Source of the DNA: Escherichia coli
GTDB taxonomy: Bacteria > Pseudomonadota > Gammaproteobacteria > Enterobacterales > Enterobacteriaceae
Assembly (NCBI RefSeq): GCF_011045215.1
Contig: NZ_CP049201.1
DNA: 64,000 bases
Direction: 5' to 3' (one strand)
Shown in pieces: positions 31,252-43,428 of this stretch. The position numbers were made by a program, and so were the translations under genes. The stretch's first letter is position 1. The number at the start of each line of letters is the position of its first letter. The notes under the pieces are model-generated. The model ran no database searches, was not told the DNA's origin, and saw only the letters and a list, made by a program, of their open reading frames with translations.

Positions 31252-32280
31252 TTATGCGTATTTGGCAGACAACAGAGTGATCCCCTCAGGGCGGAAGTTC
31301 CAGCCCGGCGTCGCGCGCATGGTATACAACGTGGTCAGGCCGCCATCCGGCATAGGGGACGGAATTTCCGTCGGCGCTGCCATATCACAGAACATCACGT
31401 TGACGGCCTGCTGGTTAGGGACCAGCGTGGAGAAAATATTGGTGTTAATGTTGTGACGCGCTTCCGGAACCTCAATCGTCGGGTTCGTAACGATGATCAG
31501 GTCATTACCACCAGCGCCTTTACCGATCAGCGTGTCGTCCTGGCAGAAAATGATGTCGTCGCCTGCCGCCTTATCGGCGACGTCTTTAACCATCGTTCCC
31601 ACCGTTCCGGTACCACCACCAGGACGCTGGTAACTGGTCAGCTCAACAATTCCTGTCCACTCCAGCGCCTTCATGAATCGCTGTGGGCTCAGAATAACAG
31701 TCGTTAATGGCTGCCCCAGCAGCAACATGCGGGTTTTCTGGTCAGCAATCAGGCCAAGCATAAATTTAGCCATCTCGCCGGAATCCCAGGTGGTATATGA
31801 ATCATTCCCTTTGCTGTCGTTGCCCAGATTCAGCGTCACTGCGTTCGGGGAGTTGGTGATCCCCTCGTTATTAGCTGCATTCACGCCATACAGCAGCATA
31901 TTACGCAACATTTGAGCGTGTCCCTGACGGTTAGCCAGGCGCAAGCCTTCAATCAGAGAATAGCCCCAGCGATCTGCTGCATCAGTATCGAGATAGCTGT
32001 ATTGCGAGCGGGAAGAAATTCGGTAAGTCATCATCCCGTCATAGCCGCCAGAGATACTGGAAGACGGTAACTGGCCCGGCAGAGACTGGCCGACCTGCGC
32101 CTGCGAGGTCATGCGCAGATATTTCTGATAGACCATCAAATCACTGGAACTGATTTTTACCGCTGGAGCACCACCAGCCAGGACTTCAAACGCCCCGGAA
32201 GCCATGCTCTGTTGCACGATCATTTCCGGCAGCACCATTGACGGCGACACAATAGTAGTCGCAGGAGTAAATGCGCTCAT
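31252..32280 (-). CDS. Major capsid protein
   Basis: 342-aa ORF after the scaffold gene; size and position typical of a major head subunit. Confidence 0.6.
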   Translation of the reverse strand: MSAFTPATTIVSPSMVLPEMIVQQSMASGAFEVLAGGAPAVKISSSDLMVYQKYLRMTSQAQVGQSLPGQLPSSSISGGYDGMMTYRISSRSQYSYLDTDAADRWGYSLIEGLRLANRQGHAQMLRNMLLYGVNAANNEGITNSPNAVTLNLGNDSKGNDSYTTWDSGEMAKFMLGLIADQKTRMLLLGQPLTTVILSPQRFMKALEWTGIVELTSYQRPGGGTGTVGTMVKDVADKAAGDDIIFCQDDTLIGKGAGGNDLIIVTNPTIEVPEARHNINTNIFSTLVPNQQAVNVMFCDMAAPTEIPSPMPDGGLTTLYTMRATPGWNFRPEGITLLSAKYA

Positions 32281-32294
32281 TAATTAATATCCCC

Positions 32295-32912
32295 TTAAAT
32301 TAAAAACAGGCCGCACGGTTTGCCGATTTCCCAGACAACGTTACCGCCATCCTCTTTTTTCACCGTCAGGTTTCCGTCAACTGAAACCATCAGCAGCTTA
32401 ATATCCACTTTCGGATTAGCGCCGGGTGATCCCGAATAAACATCAACCATGTTTTTCGTCAGATCCCACACAAAACCACTGGCAGCAACGGTGTTATTGC
32501 CATCAGCCAGCGCAACAACTTCTGCACTGACAGGGAGAGGAATGCGGGCACCTGAGCCAACGCGGTAATAGTGAACAAAGCCACCCGCAAGATATAACGG
32601 CACCGGATTATCCGGCGTGGTAATGCCATGAAATGCCTGATTAAAGACCGTAAAGGCGTTACATGCGTTTTGTGTAGCCTGCTTAATTACCGCGCCGTTA
32701 ACGCTGTCTTTCGCGGGAGCAATGCACTCCATAATGCCAACGCCACCCCATACCGGTTCAGTGATTTTGCTGTCCAGTCGACCGGAGCAAAGTTGCAGAC
32801 GAATTGCCGGATCATCCTGCGCATCCCCCTGCATCAGCCCACGGGATTCGACGTTAAAAAGGCCAACAAATGCTCCACGGTTTTTAAACGGATGAAAATT
32901 AATATCAGCCAT
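32295..32912 (-). CDS. Head protein (decoration/scaffold-associated)
   Basis: 205-aa ORF between scaffold and capsid genes. Confidence 0.4.
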   Translation of the reverse strand: MADINFHPFKNRGAFVGLFNVESRGLMQGDAQDDPAIRLQLCSGRLDSKITEPVWGGVGIMECIAPAKDSVNGAVIKQATQNACNAFTVFNQAFHGITTPDNPVPLYLAGGFVHYYRVGSGARIPLPVSAEVVALADGNNTVAASGFVWDLTKNMVDVYSGSPGANPKVDIKLLMVSVDGNLTVKKEDGGNVVWEIGKPCGLFLI

Positions 32913-34227
32913 TGTTCAGGCTCCCTTGAGTGTTAATTTTTGCCAGACGACGCCCCGGAATTTTGAAAGCACTCAGCCAGACGTTCGGATCGCCCTGATA
33001 TTCAGTAATGCGACGCCCGGCTTCATCGTTGCGGATACGTTTATGCAGTTGCCCCTGCCTACTCATCATTTCTTTTTCGATGGACTGACGGGCGGCACTG
33101 AAAATTGCGTCCTCAAGCACAGCCAGCGTTGCAGAATCCGCAATCGCGCGAATATTGACGTCCTTATGTGCCGGAGAGTGTTTCTGCATAGCGATTAGCG
33201 CACGCTTGCGGTAGTCCAGCGCATTTTCACCAGAAAACGGTGCTGGCGCGTTTTTACCGCAGGCACTGAATGCGGAGTCGGCTTTTGCCTGCGCTTCTGC
33301 CAGGGCAGAGTCATTGCGTTCTTTTTCTGCCTCCTCGTCAGCCTTACGCTGTTCTTCCGCTTCGGAATCAGCCTTTGCTTTCTCCTCAGCGTCTTTGGCT
33401 GCCGCCTCGTCAGCTTTGGCTTTTTCTTCCGCCTCCTTTGCCGCAGCTTCATCAGCTTTACGCTGTTCCTCTGCTGCTTCATCGGCTTTGGCCTTTTCTT
33501 CGGCCTCTTTTTTCGCCAGCTCTTCAGCATCCGCCCGCGCTTTGTCCCGCTGTTCCAGTGAGTCCATGCGCGTGACGACTCCATCGATTTTCTGATTAAT
33601 GCCGCTCAGGGCATCATTCACCACCCCCTGTAACAGGGCCTGGAGTTCTTCTTTTTCCATCTCAATTTCACCTGTATTTGTCACTTCAACCCCTGCGGGG
33701 ATCCGGTCTTTATCCCACACGCCCAACGAGCCGTGGTCTTTCGTCACCAGGGCGATGTGATCAACAAGGAAAGGAACGCCTTCGATTAAAAAATTGGTGT
33801 CACCTTCCTGTACTTCCACATTTCCTGATGTGCTGTTGAACACCACCGACGGGCTTGTCGAAACATCCCCCTCAGTGATTTCTTCAACAATGCTCTGGAG
33901 GTAAACGCGGCACACCGCCCATACCTCATCACCCCGGATATACGGCAGCATGACGCTACCAACGATCCGCGATTTAAAATCCTCCTCCGTCAGAACTGCG
34001 TCGTCAGGATGGTTTGCGATAACCGGAAGGCCATTGCATCGCCTTAAAAACTCCTCGTTCAGATAGAGCTTTGGATCACGCCAGACGTGCTCTTTCAGCC
34101 CGGCGCGATAGGCAAGCCCGGTTCCGGTTATGCGCAAATTCACCAGCCACATGTTGGAGAATTTCACCGGAGACGGTACGGTTCCGTCCCTGATGCGTTC
34201 TGCCACTTCAAGCTCGGTTAAACTCAC
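32905..34227 (-). CDS. Head scaffold / prohead protease-like protein with Ala-Glu-Lys repeat
   Basis: 440 aa; central repeat EEKAKADEAA(A/E)... encoded by tandem DNA repeats ~33270-33560. Confidence 0.5.
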   Translation of the reverse strand: MSLTELEVAERIRDGTVPSPVKFSNMWLVNLRITGTGLAYRAGLKEHVWRDPKLYLNEEFLRRCNGLPVIANHPDDAVLTEEDFKSRIVGSVMLPYIRGDEVWAVCRVYLQSIVEEITEGDVSTSPSVVFNSTSGNVEVQEGDTNFLIEGVPFLVDHIALVTKDHGSLGVWDKDRIPAGVEVTNTGEIEMEKEELQALLQGVVNDALSGINQKIDGVVTRMDSLEQRDKARADAEELAKKEAEEKAKADEAAEEQRKADEAAAKEAEEKAKADEAAAKDAEEKAKADSEAEEQRKADEEAEKERNDSALAEAQAKADSAFSACGKNAPAPFSGENALDYRKRALIAMQKHSPAHKDVNIRAIADSATLAVLEDAIFSAARQSIEKEMMSRQGQLHKRIRNDEAGRRITEYQGDPNVWLSAFKIPGRRLAKINTQGSLNNG

Positions 34228-35041
34228 GTTTGCCCTTCTCCGTTAAAAATTCGTCGGGTAGTTTCTGAGGGGCGTAGATCGGCAGTGCATCGCAACTGCA
34301 ATAAACCTCCTCCCCGGCAGCAGTGATTTCGTCATAAAAACCATATACGGGCTTAATCAGCCCCTGCTCCAGCGCCCACGAATCGCGGAGGAGATAAATT
34401 TTCTCGTCGCGCTCTTTGTGGTCCTGTCGGTATTTGTAGCCCGGACGCCGCCAATTCGAATGCCAGCGCAGAGCAATCGCTCCACTCTGAACAGCCAGCA
34501 GATACTTAACGTTGCTTGCCAGCTTATGCCCCTGGTCAATTGCCACCCGACGACTGATAAAATCCATATCCTTCACGGATTTCTGAAACCCGGCCTTCAC
34601 TTCCCGGCGATCAATTTCGCTCACCCCGTCAGGCGGAATGGACGTAACCCAACCCTGAAAACGCTGTATGGTTTTCTCGATGGCCTGTTCTCGGTTGAGT
34701 TTTATCAGGTTGGCACTGGCGAAAATTCGCCTGTCGAGTTCCTTGCGAAACTCAGGTTTCAGTTTTTCAACAGTGATTTTTTTAGGGCCGTCAGGAGGCT
34801 GATCCCGTAATGCCCCGCCGTCGATGACAAGACGGCTGTAGATAGCGGTGAGGTGTTTTCTGGCTACGGTATCATCAGGGGTTTCTCGCTGAGCGGCTAC
34901 ACGGAGTTTCCGGCACCATTCGAGCAATGATTTTTCGCTATCCCACCCGTGATTTACGTAGTAGTTAACGGCATCCGTCAGAACCTCATACAGCGTCCTG
35001 ATCCGTTTCTTCTTCCTCACCGCCCGGCTGGAAATTGCCAT
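34208..35041 (-). CDS. Head morphogenesis protein (Mu F-like / SPP1 gp7 family)
   Basis: Track ORF 34208..35179 overlaps portal; internal ATG at 35041; follows the portal as in Mu-like head modules. Confidence 0.5.
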   Translation of the reverse strand: MAISSRAVRKKKRIRTLYEVLTDAVNYYVNHGWDSEKSLLEWCRKLRVAAQRETPDDTVARKHLTAIYSRLVIDGGALRDQPPDGPKKITVEKLKPEFRKELDRRIFASANLIKLNREQAIEKTIQRFQGWVTSIPPDGVSEIDRREVKAGFQKSVKDMDFISRRVAIDQGHKLASNVKYLLAVQSGAIALRWHSNWRRPGYKYRQDHKERDEKIYLLRDSWALEQGLIKPVYGFYDEITAAGEEVYCSCDALPIYAPQKLPDEFLTEKGKREFNRA

Positions 35042-36425
35042 CAGGCGTCTCCTGCTTCGGTGGTTCATAATTCGCCAGCGCGTCCACATCAATGATGAGT
35101 GGAGCTTCGCCATAGGTTTGCGTGGCATTAACAAGGCTTGCCAGCCATTCAGTGACGGCGGCACGGTTTTCAGGATCAACCTGTGGCGACACGGCAGAGA
35201 AAAGTGCTATCGCCTGTTGAATCACTTTACTGTCGCTTTCCCGGCGTTTGTCCGGCGACTCCTCCACCAGCTCCTGCCATGTCGCGGTAAATTCACGTCG
35301 CCACTGGTAAAACGTGGTTTTATAGTCATCAGTTATGATGTCCGGGTAATCATTTTTCAGCGACTGATAAAATTCCTCGTTCCAGGCGATGTACTGCACC
35401 AGGCGTTCGAAATAATCCATCACGGGTTCAATCTGCTGGCGTACACCATCGATATACTGGCTGATGGCTTTCGAATCTTCGGTCCCCTCACCGAAACCAT
35501 TCGAAAAGGCTTCCTCTTTGATGAGGATCGCCGGAACGTCACTCCCTGACGCAATATCGGAAATAATATTGTCGCGTGCAGCGTTTAGCGCACCATCGAT
35601 GTTTTGTAGATTTAGCGAGGTAACGTCCTCATCCTTCCCGATACTAAGCACACCTTTATTTTTTGCCTCTTTGACGTTTTCCCTTTTTCGTCCCGTGGCG
35701 GCAGCCATGATCCCGTCAAGTTTCGAACCGTACTGCACAACTTTAGCTACCAGTACGCCCGCCTTCTGGCTGACGAGATCATTCGCCTCCATCGTGTTGA
35801 TATAGGATTTCAGGGAATAAAGAACGCGCTGAAACACACTTCGTCCGGTGAATCCGAACGATGAACTCTGAAACTCCAGATAAATCGGTGTGCCGTTGAA
35901 GATTTTCAGTGTGCGTGACGGATGCCAGTCTTTCCCACCAATCTTCAGTTTTTTATTGGCTTCCTGGAAAAACGGGCTGTTGGGGTTCTGGTCAGTCACC
36001 ATCGAACCGGAAGCGTTCAACGGGTCCCACGCGTTGATATACACGTCATCTTCTGTCAGTCCGAACGTCGGAAGCGGTTCACGACATGGAACGCTGTCGG
36101 TGCCCACGCCGATCGCTGCAGCACCGTAGCAACGAGACAGAAAAAACAGATTTTTAATCTTCTCGTTGACCTTCATGCGTTCCCATACCTCCTGAAAACG
36201 CCTCACAACCCTCTCGTCAGGGTCTGTCTCCACGTTATACTGGCGCGGCTTACACATCGCCATCAGTATGGGTTTTTCGACAAGTTTTCCGCCCAGAGGA
36301 TGGAATTGCCACAGCTGCTTACACAATTCATAGCCAATGTCGGTTCCCGGCTGAATTTCTTCAGCCTCAAGAATACGCATCAGTGCCGAACCGAGGCCGC
36401 CAGTAATCTCGATCTCTGCCATCAA
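34986..36425 (-). CDS. Portal protein
   Basis: 479-aa ORF immediately downstream of the large terminase. Confidence 0.7.
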   Translation of the reverse strand: MMAEIEITGGLGSALMRILEAEEIQPGTDIGYELCKQLWQFHPLGGKLVEKPILMAMCKPRQYNVETDPDERVVRRFQEVWERMKVNEKIKNLFFLSRCYGAAAIGVGTDSVPCREPLPTFGLTEDDVYINAWDPLNASGSMVTDQNPNSPFFQEANKKLKIGGKDWHPSRTLKIFNGTPIYLEFQSSSFGFTGRSVFQRVLYSLKSYINTMEANDLVSQKAGVLVAKVVQYGSKLDGIMAAATGRKRENVKEAKNKGVLSIGKDEDVTSLNLQNIDGALNAARDNIISDIASGSDVPAILIKEEAFSNGFGEGTEDSKAISQYIDGVRQQIEPVMDYFERLVQYIAWNEEFYQSLKNDYPDIITDDYKTTFYQWRREFTATWQELVEESPDKRRESDSKVIQQAIALFSAVSPQVDPENRAAVTEWLASLVNATQTYGEAPLIIDVDALANYEPPKQETPDGNFQPGGEEEETDQDAV

Positions 36426-36439
36426 AAATATCCTGATTT

Positions 36440-37768
36440 TTACAACTCCGCGTAATTACCGTGCGCGATGATCAATCCATAGGTGTAACAATCGAAAAGG
36501 TCATCAGCACGTTTATGCGCGTCTTTGTCTGCCAGGTGGAACCCGGCGATTTGTTTGATGAGGTGGTTTGCGGTTGTGCGCTTGAATGAAACGGTTTTGT
36601 CGTAAGCCTCGCGGGTAATTTTGCATTTACCCTGGTAATGGTGGCTGGAAGCCAGCACCGCGCGCTCGTCTTTCCCTTTGCTGGTTAACGCTGATTTAAT
36701 CGGCGTCATATCCCAGCCTTCGGTTTCCGCTTTCTGGTTGAGGATTGCGCCCATTGCGGCATCCTCCATGAATACCCCCTGACTCCCCAGGCGCGGGCGG
36801 CAGAGTTGCGCCAGCCGCTCGAGGTTGTCATAAACACCGGGGATATACTCAGGAAGCAGCGACGCTTTAATTTGCGTCACATCCCAGTCGATAACGGTCA
36901 GTTTCGGCTCATCGGAATACGTGGACTCATACGCGAAGTAAACCACGCCTGTCCCGTCGTTCTCCGTCCCGCCTTTCAGCGCCGTATCCATTACCGCAAA
37001 AATCATGTCGCAGTGTCGCGGCATCTCAACCGGCTGGCCATCCACCAGCAGCTTATCGACATCGAGTAACGCGTCTTTGGACCAGTCTACGAACTCTGCA
37101 AGATATTCCTGCTGCCAGACGCGCGGATCGGATTTCTTCTCCGTTTCCTCCAGTTCTTCTTTCGGAATATACGGATTCGATGAAGTTGGCGCATGGTGCA
37201 TAACAAATCCCAGGGATTCATCGTGGCATATCGCGTAGAAAAAATTGCTCTCGTCGATACCGTTTGGTGTGGAAAATACCCACGCACAGCCGCGGTAATC
37301 GACAAGCGTCGGGCGTATCGCTCGGGGCCAGATTTCCTCGAGCATTTCCGGCGATTTAGTGAATGCGGCCTCATCAATCAGCACAGCGTGATATTTACGC
37401 CCACGCCCGGCCAGTTTGTTATTGTCCGTTACCCAAAAGTCGATGCGCCCCCCATTACGGAGAATGATGCGCTTTTCATTTTTTGACTGACTGAGGATCA
37501 GCGGTTGCAGAACGGCGCTAATTTCATCCCAGATTTCCTGGTACTGGCGGTATTGCGCGGTAAAAATCCCCACCCTACCCGCGATAAGTTGCCCGGTGGT
37601 AGGAACGGCAAATTTCCGCGTAGCGAAACTGGTAGCGATGTTCACCAGCATCACCGTTTTACCCCAGCGACGACCACAGCATACCGCGTGGAAGCGTTCC
37701 TCTATTGCCGCCGTCCATGCAGCTATTTGCCCCTCATGAGGTTTTGGGAGGTAGATTTCAATCGACAT
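36440..37768 (-). CDS. Terminase large subunit
   Basis: 442 aa; Walker A (CGRRWGKT) near N-terminus; C-terminal nuclease-like region. Confidence 0.85.
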   Translation of the reverse strand: MSIEIYLPKPHEGQIAAWTAAIEERFHAVCCGRRWGKTVMLVNIATSFATRKFAVPTTGQLIAGRVGIFTAQYRQYQEIWDEISAVLQPLILSQSKNEKRIILRNGGRIDFWVTDNNKLAGRGRKYHAVLIDEAAFTKSPEMLEEIWPRAIRPTLVDYRGCAWVFSTPNGIDESNFFYAICHDESLGFVMHHAPTSSNPYIPKEELEETEKKSDPRVWQQEYLAEFVDWSKDALLDVDKLLVDGQPVEMPRHCDMIFAVMDTALKGGTENDGTGVVYFAYESTYSDEPKLTVIDWDVTQIKASLLPEYIPGVYDNLERLAQLCRPRLGSQGVFMEDAAMGAILNQKAETEGWDMTPIKSALTSKGKDERAVLASSHHYQGKCKITREAYDKTVSFKRTTANHLIKQIAGFHLADKDAHKRADDLFDCYTYGLIIAHGNYAEL

Positions 37769-38849
37769 TATCCACTCCCGGCATCGGCAGAGAGTTGTGG
37801 ATAATTATTTCGTTATTCTCACCACCCACGCCTTTTTTGAGGTTTTCAATCTCAGTGCGCAGCTTTTCGTTGCGAAGCCTCAGTCCTTCAAGCTCCAGAT
37901 CATTGCGACTGTCAGTTGCACCACCAGCAGAACTTCCTTTCGTCGCCATTATCAGCTTGATAAGTTCGCGCCGGGCGGCAGCCTTATCCTCCAGCAGGAT
38001 CTCAACACCAAATTTCCCGAGCTTTGCCCCTGCATATAATTGTCGCGCATCCCCATCAAGCAGAGTGGTATCAGCCATATAAAGCTGTCCCGTTCCCTCA
38101 CCGCAGCACTTCGGACAATCCGGATTGGGTATGGCGTTATCAACAAAGCCGAGGCCTCCATATTCCGGCTCGGGTTTGCCATCTCTGGAGGCCTGTGCCG
38201 CTGCCTTATCGAATTCTGCAATATCACGCCACTGGTAGAGGTGATTCTCGCCCCAGCAATAACGGCAGTTAACACGGCGAAATTGTGCCAACTGATTGGG
38301 GTCGGCCTGGACAATGGCCATCAACTGACTCACCAGTAAATCCAGGTCTGCGGTATAGCGTTTCTGATACTGATTGCGGAAGTAGCTGATAGCACGATAA
38401 ACCCTGGCATTTCTAAGCATACGGCTGGCGTTGCTGTTAGCTGTCGCACCTTGCCCCTCATAACCAGCCAGTCGGTATGCCTCTGTCGGCTTTTTCCCCT
38501 GAGCAACAAGCATCGCAAACTTAGCCTGCTGGTCAGAAATGCCGAATTCATCGGGGCAGAACGAAAATTCCTCCGCGTCGCCCTCATTCAGGCACGCATC
38601 GGATACTGGCTTTTTTTTCTGAGATTTTCCGTTCCGCTTTTGCGCAGTCTGCGCAGATTTTTTCTGCGCACTTTGTTGCGCAGTTTTGCGCATTTCTGTC
38701 TGCGCATTTTTCGGAGGTTTTTTGATGTAACGACGGGCTGTTGCGTAATTCAGTCCCCTTGCCTCACACCATGCCACCGGGGATACACCGGAGCGGGTGT
38801 ATTCAGCAATATATTCCTGCTGCAACGCCCCCCAGTCCGGTCTGCTCAT
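37758..38849 (-). CDS. Terminase small subunit (HTH N-terminus)
   Basis: 363-aa ORF overlapping the TerL start; N-terminal HTH, basic linker, coiled-coil C-terminus. Confidence 0.6.
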   Translation of the reverse strand: MSRPDWGALQQEYIAEYTRSGVSPVAWCEARGLNYATARRYIKKPPKNAQTEMRKTAQQSAQKKSAQTAQKRNGKSQKKKPVSDACLNEGDAEEFSFCPDEFGISDQQAKFAMLVAQGKKPTEAYRLAGYEGQGATANSNASRMLRNARVYRAISYFRNQYQKRYTADLDLLVSQLMAIVQADPNQLAQFRRVNCRYCWGENHLYQWRDIAEFDKAAAQASRDGKPEPEYGGLGFVDNAIPNPDCPKCCGEGTGQLYMADTTLLDGDARQLYAGAKLGKFGVEILLEDKAAARRELIKLIMATKGSSAGGATDSRNDLELEGLRLRNEKLRTEIENLKKGVGGENNEIIIHNSLPMPGVDNVD

Positions 38850-38852
38850 TAG

Positions 38853-39104
38853 TTAGTCCTGATTTTTATCCACCCTGAGTAGTTCACGCAGGGCAAAGGC
38901 ATCCCCTTTTCTGGCAAGCTTAAACAATGCCGCCCGTAGTTCGGCTTCACCTTTCGCTCTGCCCTTACGGATGGATGCGTAAAAATCTGTCATTGCTTCC
39001 CGATTTTCTTTCAGTCGGTTCAGATCAACATCCAGAACGTCAGCGATTTGTTGTGCAGTCATCCGGCACGCTGCCAGAGACTCGACTTTCGAATACGGAA
39101 TCAT
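38853..39104 (-). CDS. Hypothetical small protein
   Basis: 83-aa ORF just upstream of TerS. Confidence 0.35.
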   Translation of the reverse strand: MIPYSKVESLAACRMTAQQIADVLDVDLNRLKENREAMTDFYASIRKGRAKGEAELRAALFKLARKGDAFALRELLRVDKNQD

Positions 39105-39990
39105 TTGTCACCCCCATTGATATGCAGGGTGTCTTCTTCCTGTATTTTTCGTGAAGGATTTTTACTGCAGCGTTGTTCCAGGTGACCTGATGGTGAATGC
39201 GTTTATGGCTGGCCCCCATCAGTGAGATTTTTACGCACGAGGGCGCATACATGACGGAGTAAAAACTTTTAACGTAGGTTCCGGAATCCAGATACAGCTC
39301 GGTCATTCCGCCGCTGTTTTTCTGCGTCTGTTTCTGCCCTAACTGGACAGCACCGATCGTCATAAACAATTCACCACAGCGACCGAGATTCGTGTACGTA
39401 TTCACATCCTCGTTAATGCGCCCCATGAATGAGAACGGTCGATCAACCGAACAGATAAAGCTGTTCATTGCCTTGCGTTTCACCCACGAAGCATGGCCGC
39501 CATTGTCACCAAGAAAATCCCCGCCCTGCGACATAGCGATGGAAAGCGCAGGTATTGATTCGTAGTACGCCAGCATTTCAGAAAGGATCGCATCCAGTTT
39601 TCTTATCGGGAAATAGGCCTGGTCATAGTTGCGATCCACCCGAAACTGAAACTCGTGATAATCATCATCGAGCTGAATGAAGTATTTACACCCGACCAGT
39701 TTTGCCAGGTCGAAACAGGCATTACGGGCGTAAAAAATTGAGCGGCGATCACCGAAATTATCGGCTTCGTCAAAACGACTGGCTATATCGGCTTTGGAAA
39801 ACACCAGCACCTGTTCACCAAATTCAGCTATGTACTGATGCCGTGTCTTATCTTCATCATCAACAACGATAAAAATTTTCCCGGTATAGCCAGCACGACG
39901 CAACGTCCGGTAAGTCAGAACTTTGTCCGGTCGCCCGTGAGTCAGAATAAAGGCGCAAAAATCATCACGCATATTCCTCCTCCCCGCCAT
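39040..39990 (-). CDS. Hypothetical protein with glycosyltransferase-like (GT-A-like) motifs
   Basis: N-terminal FILTHGRPD and later DDD motif (IQLDDDY) suggest a nucleotide-sugar transferase fold; alternative ATG at 39972. Confidence 0.4.
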   Translation of the reverse strand: MAGRRNMRDDFCAFILTHGRPDKVLTYRTLRRAGYTGKIFIVVDDEDKTRHQYIAEFGEQVLVFSKADIASRFDEADNFGDRRSIFYARNACFDLAKLVGCKYFIQLDDDYHEFQFRVDRNYDQAYFPIRKLDAILSEMLAYYESIPALSIAMSQGGDFLGDNGGHASWVKRKAMNSFICSVDRPFSFMGRINEDVNTYTNLGRCGELFMTIGAVQLGQKQTQKNSGGMTELYLDSGTYVKSFYSVMYAPSCVKISLMGASHKRIHHQVTWNNAAVKILHEKYRKKTPCISMGVTNDSVFESRVSGSVPDDCTTNR

Positions 39991-40753
39991 GCATGATCTC
40001 CACCATACGCTGCGTCATCCGGACAAAACCATTTTCGATGGCTTGCTGATAATCAATGATCACCAGTGCCGACTCCTCAAAAAGGCCCTGAATTTCAGCG
40101 GGGGCGTGAGCGTAATAGTCTGCAATTCTGCTGAAATTAAACACCGTGTGGCGTTCTGCCGCGCACAGGAGGAATTTTTCGATATCAGGCTCAAGGGACG
40201 CCGTACGTATCCGGCTGACCAGCTCCTGAGTTTTCGTATCGTCGTACAGTTCACTGATATCCGGTTCATCCCCTGACGGCTCATAAACAGGCGTATCAAT
40301 TTTCGTCGTGTACGGCTCATCCTCATTCGCTGTACCTGGCAAAACATCCGTTAATAGTTCGTCAATTTCTGTCGGGCAGAATCCTGTCAGGGAGATATCA
40401 AAATCAGCATTGATTAGGTCCGACAGCTCCATCCGTAACAGATCTTCATCCCAGCCAGCACTCATCGGCAGGCGATTATCAGCCAGGCGGTACGCCTTTT
40501 TCTGATCATCCGTCAGACCAGACAGAACAATGACCGGAACCGAATCCATTTTGAGCGCCTCAGCCGCCATAACACGCCCGTGCCCCGCAATAATTTCACC
40601 CTTTTCATCAATCAGCACCGGATTTGTCCAGCCGAATTGCTTAATGCTTTCAACCAGCTGTGTCACCTGTTCAGGAGAGTGTGTCCTTGCATTGTGCACA
40701 TACGGAGACAACTCTTGTAACAGTCGATAGACAATATTCAATTTTTCGCTCAT
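39965..40753 (-). CDS. ParB-like nuclease domain protein
   Basis: Track ORF 39965..40840; ATG at 40753 with GAGG upstream; ParB/Srx-type N-terminal motif ...TNPVLIDEKGEIIAGHGRVMAA... Confidence 0.75.
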   Translation of the reverse strand: MSEKLNIVYRLLQELSPYVHNARTHSPEQVTQLVESIKQFGWTNPVLIDEKGEIIAGHGRVMAAEALKMDSVPVIVLSGLTDDQKKAYRLADNRLPMSAGWDEDLLRMELSDLINADFDISLTGFCPTEIDELLTDVLPGTANEDEPYTTKIDTPVYEPSGDEPDISELYDDTKTQELVSRIRTASLEPDIEKFLLCAAERHTVFNFSRIADYYAHAPAEIQGLFEESALVIIDYQQAIENGFVRMTQRMVEIMHGGEEEYA

Positions 40754-41113
40754 ACAACCTCGCTTTATGAATAAAAAACTAACAGCAGCCAGTGGAGAGC
40801 ATTTATCATTAACATTTACAGATAAGATGACGTACATCATTGAAACGCCATTAAGCTATATACCTGCAGCATTTGTAGTTGCACTCCGCAACTCTGCGAC
40901 TACGGTTATAAAAGCATTGGCAACTTTTGCCACCGGCAAATCTTCCATGGATTTCCTCTGCCGGTTTTTTATTTTCGTCGATGCATAACATTGCATTTAC
41001 ATCAATACCGTCTATTGTCATAAGTATGTTGTACCGATGCTCGGGTGATATTGGCGGTCTTCGCCAGCCGGTTCTGTGTAGTTGCTCCCTGTGACCGGTT
41101 TTTTATTTCTCAC

Positions 41114-42820: not shown

Positions 42821-43277
42821 GTAAAAAAACACCCCGTCAAAGGCACCCGCAGATACCTTTTGTGTGGTGTTATCTGGTGTTTTCTGGTGTGGTGTGTGCA
42901 GGACACAGATGTGAAAAAGGTCCGCTGGTACGAACCCTGTATATGGATAAAAAAATGCCCGTCAGGAGACGGGCCAGAGCATTCATCGTGTAGTAATAGA
43001 ATTATATTTATATATGGTCGCCACCAGAATGAGTCGTCAACCTACAAAGCCATCCTGGCTTACTGTACGTGTGCGCATGGAACAGGTAACGACTCATTCT
43101 GCTAACGACGTTTACAAGTAATAATCACATACCATTATGTAATACAAAAAAAAGCAGCACTGAAACTGTAACCGTTCAGATATTACAGCATGAAGAAAAA
43201 CAATAGTACCTACAAAGCTGTTCTCCGCGAAAATTCGCCAGTGCTGATAAAGCTATGCCTCGTTTGTTTTACAGGAG

Positions 43278-43349
<72 letters not shown>

Positions 43350-43352
43350 ATA

Positions 43353-43428
<76 letters not shown>

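Follow-up and report, generated by a model that had tools for sequence, protein, structure and literature searches.

A probable capsid maturation protease–scaffold gene with a tandem-repeat linker in a Rac-like lambdoid prophage of Escherichia coli

In bacteriophage lambda, a single gene, C/Nu3, encodes both protease and scaffold (PMC8508860, citing Shaw & Murialdo, 1980), and in P2 gpO and Mu gpI/gpZ an N-terminal assemblin-fold serine protease and a C-terminal scaffolding domain are likewise combined in one gene (Chang et al., 2009, cited in PMC8508860). In phage Pa193, residues 286–326 of gp24 were seen by cryo-EM as a helix-turn-helix bound on the inside of the capsid, under its five-fold vertices, and were interpreted as scaffold (PMC11456595); that paper treats gp24 as scaffold only, without any mention of a protease, and the RefSeq annotation of gp24 reads ‘head maturation protease’. 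Here we describe a gene located in a 64,000-nucleotide stretch of Escherichia coli DNA (contig NZ_CP049201.1 of assembly GCF_011045215.1; hereafter the window), at positions 32905..34227 of its minus strand. This gene is probably a bifunctional head-assembly gene of a Rac-like lambdoid prophage, coding for both a capsid maturation protease and a scaffold, with a charged linker built from tandem repeats between its two terminal domains.

The locus resembles lambda gpC/gpNu3 in that a single frame between the portal and major capsid protein (MCP) genes would encode an N-terminal protease and, from an internal ATG, a shorter scaffold with a common C-terminus. It differs in that lambda has no comparable K-A-D tandem array, and in that the nested product, demonstrated in lambda, is predicted here. 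Moreover, lambda gpC is a ClpP/S49-type protease and does not have the assemblin/gp21 fold. The arrangement of a predicted assemblin-fold protease followed by a scaffolding part is shared with P2 gpO and Mu gpI/gpZ, and Mu also has the head-module order portal, MuF, protease-scaffold and MCP; however, similarity to the Pfam families of these proteins was not detectable, they have no long repeat-built charged linker, and P2 gpO is autoprocessed, without internal-start translation. Pa193 gp24, the namesake of Pfam family PF09979, occupies the same gene slot, also has a long low-complexity acidic middle, and aligns with the N-terminal domain of the window protein (24% identity, E 4e-4), with histidines at the positions of H73 and H157. 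Yet the protease domain alone aligns, the C-terminal domains do not, and the Pa193 linker is rich in Glu, Ser, Gly and Ala, without K-A-D repeats or the (R/K)xD(A/S) motif considered below. In T4, protease (gp21) and scaffold (gp22) are separate genes, the sequence identity is 9% and the cleavage specificity is for Glu; the likeness to T4 gp21, as to HK97 gp4, is one of fold. The gene and its parts are located as follows.

32905..34227, minus strand: protease-scaffold gene, an open reading frame (ORF) with a GTG start; 440 residues, 48.5 kDa, pI 4.9
33673..34227, minus strand: predicted N-terminal capsid maturation protease domain (residues 1–185)
34009..34011, 33853..33855 and 33757..33759, minus strand: candidate catalytic residues His73, Ser125 and His157, respectively, from conservation
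33669..33673, minus strand: Shine–Dalgarno-like (SD-like) AGGTG, 8 nt upstream of the internal ATG
32905..33660, minus strand: putative nested in-frame gene from Met190 (ATG 33658..33660); 251 residues, 27.4 kDa, C-terminus common with the full-length protein
33553..33651, minus strand: conserved amphipathic segment (residues 193–225, ELQALLQGVVNDALSGINQKIDGVVTRMDSLE), with its R-M-D-S end at 33559..33570
33268..33552, minus strand: charged linker (residues 226–320), from composition; predicted helical
33316..33525, minus strand: tandem repeat array (residues 235–304), from the parse into units
33274..33285, minus strand: conserved K-A-D-S closing the linker (residues 315–318), inside the family motif A-x-A-Q-A-K-A-D-S
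32908..33267, minus strand: C-terminal globular domain (residues 321–440), pLDDT 82–98

The head scaffold/protease identity given to the gene in a preliminary description, made from the letters of the window alone, is borne out by family matches, conserved residues and synteny. Pfam PF09979 (DUF2213, named Pa193_gp24 in a newer release) matches residues 46–163 with 27.4 bits against a gathering cut-off of 22, and it also matches 33 of 40 relatives. In PHROGs, the protein matches the uncharacterised phrog_6216 and, weakly, two ‘head maturation protease’ families. The AlphaFold model, built from the 40 relatives (mean pLDDT 82), consists of a confident β-rich N-terminal domain (residues 1–165), a poorly defined segment (185–225), two long helices (222–282 and 290–322) and a confident C-terminal domain (about 320–430). 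Foldseek run on this model finds families that agree with the sequence-based ones, and its structural neighbours in BFVD carry the names of prohead or capsid maturation proteases. The N-terminal domain thus has the β-rich fold of the assemblin-fold capsid maturation serine proteases (T4 gp21, HK97 gp4, herpesvirus protease), and the gene lies between those of the portal and the MCP, as expected for a capsid maturation protease. Across the 40 relatives (35–51% identity), neither H73 nor S125 (in T-S-P) varies, and the conservation of D156-H157 is 90% or more. The assemblin triad has this same His-Ser-His order, and we consider the three residues to be a candidate triad. The N-terminal domain is predicted from these elements to be an active serine protease of the T4 gp21/HK97/herpesvirus assemblin fold. 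Searching PDB sequences with the protein, and again with a profile of 40 sequences, returned chance helical matches only and reached neither Pa193 gp24 nor T4 gp21.

The C-terminal domain is invariant in length in the family (115–123 residues across 14 relatives), with G333, E334 and Y339 invariant, and is presumed to be a coat-binding or targeting domain. In the amphipathic segment, the pattern ..LD.I...L..R.D..E is also present in relatives and R220 is at least 90% conserved; AlphaFold confidence is low here, and by analogy with the Pa193 gp24 helix (PMC11456595) we assign to this segment a putative oligomerization or coat-binding role. Homologues are numerous: at least 549 representative clusters are found at E ≤ 1e-30 in a search of 1.84 billion representatives. 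Of 5426 complete E. coli genomes, 86 (about 1.6%) contain the gene itself, which is chromosomal in every case, and in relatives the same 1323-nt coding sequence (CDS) is annotated by PGAP as ‘DUF2213 domain-containing protein’.

A second product most likely starts inside the gene. Among 144 representatives, a methionine recurs some 21 residues past GVWDK, which marks the end of the protease domain: the first Met lies at an offset of 15–29 residues in 85% of them and of 20–24 in 60%. The residue that follows it is usually Thr, Ala, Ser or Pro, and acidic residues come next. In 12 of 12 homologue DNAs (homologue P0153 not being among the 12), the corresponding ATG is preceded at 4–10 nt by a purine-rich SD-like motif, with a mean anti-SD duplex energy of −6.3 kcal/mol, compared with −2.9 ± 2.6 kcal/mol for the remaining codons of these genes (resampling P about 5e-5). 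The conserved ATG and its SD-like motif point to a 251-residue nested scaffold started at Met190, comparable to lambda C/Nu3; nested starts have precedents in lambda and P2 (PMC8508860).

The linker that both products would contain is highly charged: its 95 residues comprise 31 Ala, 23 Glu, 15 Lys and 10 Asp, for a net charge of about −13, and three hydrophobic residues (Leu, Ile, Val, Met or Phe). Pairs of opposite charge at i/i+3 and i/i+4 number 48, compared with 27 ± 4 in shuffles (z about 5). The linker thereby resembles single α-helix (ER/K) domains and TolA domain II, which are long Glu/Lys/Ala-rich helices with no hydrophobic seam and with enriched i/i+4 opposite charges. The paucity of hydrophobic residues, the charge pairs and the predicted helix are all features of a single α-helix, but Ala and Asp are high (33% and 10%), which together with an Asp-specific motif is atypical of ER/K helices, and the model has a break at 283–289. 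AlphaFold confidence is low at 185–225 and 281–289, so that the helix may not be a single continuous one. A canonical coiled coil was considered and is unlikely because the mixed 10- and 14-residue units lose heptad register and hydrophobic positions are few. The simplest reading of the model is an α-helix of about 14 nm that is exposed to solvent and may be segmented.

A head-to-tail parse of the translation divides the array into six units of 8, 10 or 14 residues, in the order EELAKKEA, EEKAKADEAA, EEQRKADEAAAKEA, EEKAKADEAAAKDA, EEKAKADSEA and EEQRKADEEAEKER. The preliminary description had placed near-identical Ala-Glu-Lys units, encoded by DNA repeats of about 27–30 bp, at 33250–33600. 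The array does fall inside this interval and its units do run head to tail, but their main sizes in DNA are 30 and 42 nt, and the near-identity holds for the peptides, not for the DNA. The unit peptides are 70–100% identical (7–10 of 10 residues between ten-residue cores, with a single exception pair at 6 of 10), whereas the unit DNA is 57–83% identical (17–25 of 30 nucleotides). In most pairs of units, codons differ for roughly half or more of the residues that agree, and the longest exact direct repeat within the array is 11 nt. Periodicity is nevertheless present at the DNA level, as had been anticipated: self-identity peaks at lags of 114, 72, 42 and 30 nt (72 and 114 being compound lags), the best lag identity being 0.60 compared with 0.48 ± 0.017 in 500 codon shuffles, the maximum of which is 0.565. 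A tandem-repeat finder (TRF) also reports an array, but a single weak one (33367..33459, period 42, 2.2 copies, 74% matches, score 102); both signals are weak because the units are merely 57–83% identical as DNA. In a stringent composition-preserving test of local tandem duplication, the window’s own linker reaches p about 0.04 only, because shuffling a low-complexity sequence itself yields inflated scores.

Purines make up 75% of the array’s coding strand (GAA, GAG, AAA and GCN codons), and stop codons are few in all frames. Three alternate-frame ORFs, whose coordinates agree exactly with those of the preliminary description, are by-products of this composition.

33195..33584, minus strand: spurious alternate-frame ORF, 129 residues, Lys/Arg-rich, nested wholly inside the gene and co-extensive with the low-complexity region
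33270..33575, plus strand: spurious antisense ORF, 101 residues, Leu/Pro-rich
33314..33595, plus strand: spurious antisense ORF, 93 residues, Ser/Ala-rich

As already recognized in that description, the array is not a CRISPR array: its units are contiguous, have no spacers and lie inside a conserved, protein-coding reading frame.

The suggestion that copy number might vary proved right. Alleles of 440, 430, 416 and 415 residues exist in E. coli, and among the 60 listed of the 86 matching genomes the 1323-nt form accounts for 40 of 54 full-length genes, the 1293-nt form for 12, and forms of 1251 nt (strain P13-6) and 1248 nt (ETEC1738) for one each. Carriers of the 1293-nt form include strain SA53-3, and the gene in the separately deposited record of phage Rac-SA53 is likewise 1293 nt. 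Aligned with the window gene, the shorter alleles differ from it essentially by deletions of 10, 24 and 25 residues in the array (30, 72 and 75 nt in the Rac-SA53-type, P13-6 and ETEC1738 alleles, respectively), all in frame and in register. The deletion junctions lie between in-register microhomologies of 9–14 nt (AAAGCYGATGAAGC, GCGGAAGAA and GCTGACGAGG), and as the three junctions are distinct there must have been at least three independent events of unit loss (or gain). The best 120 matches in a collection of 5.8 billion proteins are all 440 residues long and at least 98% identical, and are uninformative on length variants and distant relatives. The array seems fairly stable, which fits the low DNA identity between its units. 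In a separate observation, the gene is split in the cattle strains E. coli C7 and C3 by an IS3-family insertion in the C-terminal domain, downstream of the array (locus L005, 1399..4034), and the C-terminal remnant carries the PGAP label ‘NUDIX hydrolase’.

In the wider family, 147 of the best 149 clusters have the two terminal domains, joined by linkers of 94–324 residues (median 156) that are 50–81% Glu, Lys, Ala, Asp, Arg and Gln. Lineages differ in their linker units, for example KAKADADEEEKKKAD in four copies or KAKADDDDDDKGKDS, and 32 of 144 linkers (22%) show local tandem duplication, with units of 5–18 residues, beyond nearly all composition-matched shuffles. In low-complexity linkers, neither tandem repeats nor polymorphism in them is out of the ordinary.

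We propose that one gene gives rise to two proteins, the full-length protease and an in-frame 251-residue scaffold begun at Met190. Because they would have the linker and the C-terminal domain in common, the assembling procapsid would take in the protease along with the scaffold. The linker would act as a spacer between the coat-binding or oligomerizing parts (the amphipathic segment 193–225 and the C-terminal domain) and, in the full-length form, would tether the protease inside the procapsid. Its sequence and length would be weakly constrained, except for a recurring (R/K)-x-D-(A/S), with 10- and 14-residue units that each open with Asp and acidic residues and close with basic residues. Recombination or slippage between diverged repeats would add and remove units, producing neutral or nearly neutral length alleles.

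Several points weigh against this proposal. For the 440-residue protein, proteolytic activity, internal initiation and oligomeric state are all deductions from its sequence, a predicted structure and comparisons among relatives. Glu-rich coding sequence often contains SD-like motifs, a given site falls no higher than in the top 3–27% of the background from the same gene, and the conserved Met could mark a processing site or a structural residue instead. AlphaFold confidence is low in the two regions named above, which weakens the case for one continuous helix. The dominance of the 440-residue form, both in the best 120 matches and in the E. coli genomes listed, hints at a constraint on length. 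Finally, the strength of the Asp-specific motif implies that the linker is not purely a compositional spacer.

This motif, the tetrapeptide (R/K)-(A/K/R/M)-D-(A/S), occurs 730 times in 143 linkers, compared with 63 expected from per-sequence shuffles (11.6-fold), while its Glu-for-Asp version occurs at 0.49 of expectation. The best-conserved sites flanking the linker, R-M-D-S (220–223) and K-A-D-S (315–318), both fit the motif; in the latter region Q313 and A316 are at least 90% conserved and D317 is invariant. The window protein contains eight loose copies, and ten neighbouring head and tail proteins contain none except for one in TerL. The motif may reflect helix segments optimized for their dipole, with an Asp N-cap, acidic residues at the start and basic residues at the end, or it may consist of cleavage sites by which the attached protease dices the scaffold after assembly. 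A specific recognition role is favoured by the invariance of D317 and by the confinement of the motif to one protein, and the helical model running through D317 counts against it.

It is possible, if doubtful, that each (R/K)-x-D-(A/S) is a site for the attached protease. After assembly, the protease would then cut the linker into peptides of 10–14 residues, which would leave the shell, much as T4 gp21 processes the gp22 core; the protease and C-terminal domains would be set free or kept inside. The repeats would determine how many cuts are made, not a length, and a purified protease domain would cut the EEKAKADSEAEE peptide or the linker. A role in helix or charge alone would not discriminate Asp from Glu as strongly as the enrichment does, and the motif bounds the linker at its best-conserved positions. 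In addition, the MCP has no delta domain to cut, so that the scaffold is the obvious substrate of the protease, and the authors of the Pa193 study suspect cleavage of gp24 (PMC11456595). On the other hand, the motif can equally well be read as a helix N-cap with a charge dipole (units opening with D-(A/S)-E-E and closing with K-A-K-A), D317 lies inside a confident model helix, and Pa193 gp24, from the same Pfam family, lacks the motif. Known specificities in this fold also differ, being for Glu in T4 gp21 and for Ala-Ser in the herpesvirus assemblins. We regard as rather unlikely the stronger form of the idea, in which the linker would be a self-destruct cassette with an Asp-directed DUF2213 protease (capsid maturation proteases are not known to have this specificity), tandem duplication multiplying the sites at which the scaffold is diced into peptides small enough to leave the shell. 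If true, substrate and enzyme would co-evolve within one polypeptide, with turnover of units around a fixed tetrapeptide.

The preliminary description also suggested that copy number could alter scaffold length, but that it matters in this way is not supported. One way in which this could matter is as a molecular ruler, the number of repeats tuning the size of the procapsid or the radial position of the protease, so that the length alleles would be adaptive. A rigid charged helix would indeed change by 1.5 nm per 10-residue unit, the alleles differ by 1.5–3.75 nm and the 440-residue form predominates. Yet in 14 loci the linker varies from 114 to 153 residues (94–324 in the wider set) while the MCP is fixed at 339–343 residues and the C-terminal domain at 115–123, and the sizes of complete genomes (43.8–52.3 kb) do not track linker length, Rac-SA53 combining the largest genome with a linker among the shortest. 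We therefore consider a ruler very unlikely. Under the protease–scaffold proposal with its spacer linker, changes in copy number are probably near-neutral, since MCP length, C-terminal domain length and genome size do not follow the length of the linker.

A TolA-like envelope protein or a NUDIX hydrolase, with the repeats as a TolA domain II helix, is almost certainly not what the gene encodes, even though GenBank records say ‘TolA protein’, UniRef and PGAP fragments say ‘NUDIX hydrolase’ and TIGR02794 (tolA_full) matches residues 229–326, because fold, synteny and conserved residues indicate a head protease and scaffold. The TIGR02794 match reaches 29.2 bits against a cut-off of 59.45 and is confined to the low-complexity charged region, TolA domains I and III are absent, and no NUDIX match (PF00293) is found in the window protein. 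Deposited labels for the gene include ‘TolA protein’ (Rac-SA53 and pPE4), ‘NUDIX hydrolase’, ‘glycosyl transferase’ and ‘hypothetical’. The TolA label arises because the composition of the linker resembles that of TolA, and the NUDIX label because it is inherited from relatives with an additional N-terminal NUDIX domain of 120–170 residues (PMC8770471). This domain is present in 10 of the 40 relatives. The fused homologues include those at L007 3625..5286, L008 4662..6293, L009 4500..6347 and L010 4683..6272, as well as those of loci L012, L013 and L015–L017; in them, the procapsid would take up a NUDIX enzyme or be its site of action.

Other public records touch the same family. ‘Actinobacillus phage vB_Apl-pPE4’ (PP818812.1), deposited as infecting Actinobacillus pleuropneumoniae, carries a gene 97.7% identical to that of the window in the same head module, and its similarity to an E. 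coli prophage raises doubt on the stated host. In Burkholderia cenocepacia, DUF2213 was termed a ‘putative essential domain’ in a Tn-seq/CRISPRi study (BCAM1066; PMC8770471); should the protein be the head protease of a prophage, polar or prophage-induction effects would explain its apparent essentiality more readily than a cellular function. The Aravind survey of NAD/ADPr systems mentions Rac-SA53 for its toxin only, and the protease-scaffold gene is absent from it.

The surrounding head module consists of the following genes.

34986..36425, minus strand: portal protein (Pfam Phage_portal_3, E 1.6e-12; phrog_146 portal, E 5.6e-75)
34208..35179, minus strand: head-morphogenesis gene, MuF/SPP1 gp7-like (phrog_324, E 3.8e-37)
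32295..32912, minus strand: 205-residue gene between scaffold and MCP, in a slot conserved by synteny (phrog_6268, function unknown)
31252..32280, minus strand: MCP, 342 residues (phrog_6671 and phrog_264 major head protein)

The order TerL, portal, MuF-like, protease-scaffold, 205-residue gene and MCP is conserved in distant phages; from the portal to the MCP, with a small gene before the latter, it recurs in 11 distant loci, namely Pantoea, Yersinia, Shewanella and Klebsiella phages and seven metagenomic contigs. The start of the MuF-like gene is placed later by PGAP in relatives, equivalent to 34208..35041 (an 834-nt CDS in RM9088), and homologues of the MCP match Pfam Major_capside. The 205-residue gene occupies the slot of the Pa193 decoration protein, and its product has no detectable sequence similarity to that protein, gp25. 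The PGAP name of portal homologues (L003–L006) is ‘anti-CBASS protein Acb1 family protein’, whereas Pfam and PHROGs identify them as portals; the Acb1 label is probably an annotation-propagation error.

Outside the head module, a TET-associated glycosyltransferase (39040..39990, minus strand; Pfam TAGT, E 1e-34) and a ParB_N-domain protein (39965..40840, minus strand) lie directly upstream of terS, in the slot where Rac-SA53 has its LT-IIa enterotoxin genes. The pair possibly forms a cargo module at a ‘moron’ position, for DNA modification or another purpose. Within the terS ORF (37758..38849), a TGCGCA-rich 36-bp tandem repeat (38640..38712, two copies, 80% matches) could be a pac/cos-related or regulatory repeat. 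Two tRNA genes carried by the prophage, for tRNA-Gly(TCC) and tRNA-Thr(TGT), adjoin each other at 43277..43428 (minus strand).

What the analysis yields is a corrected annotation, a probable family-wide nested scaffold gene and a sharply defined linker motif. A family found in hundreds of phage lineages can be re-annotated as capsid maturation protease/scaffold with a probable nested product, which would add a large uncharacterised family to head assembly in the style of lambda C/Nu3 and P2 gpO. Its scaffold linker tolerates large changes in length while one short Asp-centred motif persists, and this motif offers a testable lead on cleavage specificity or helix design.

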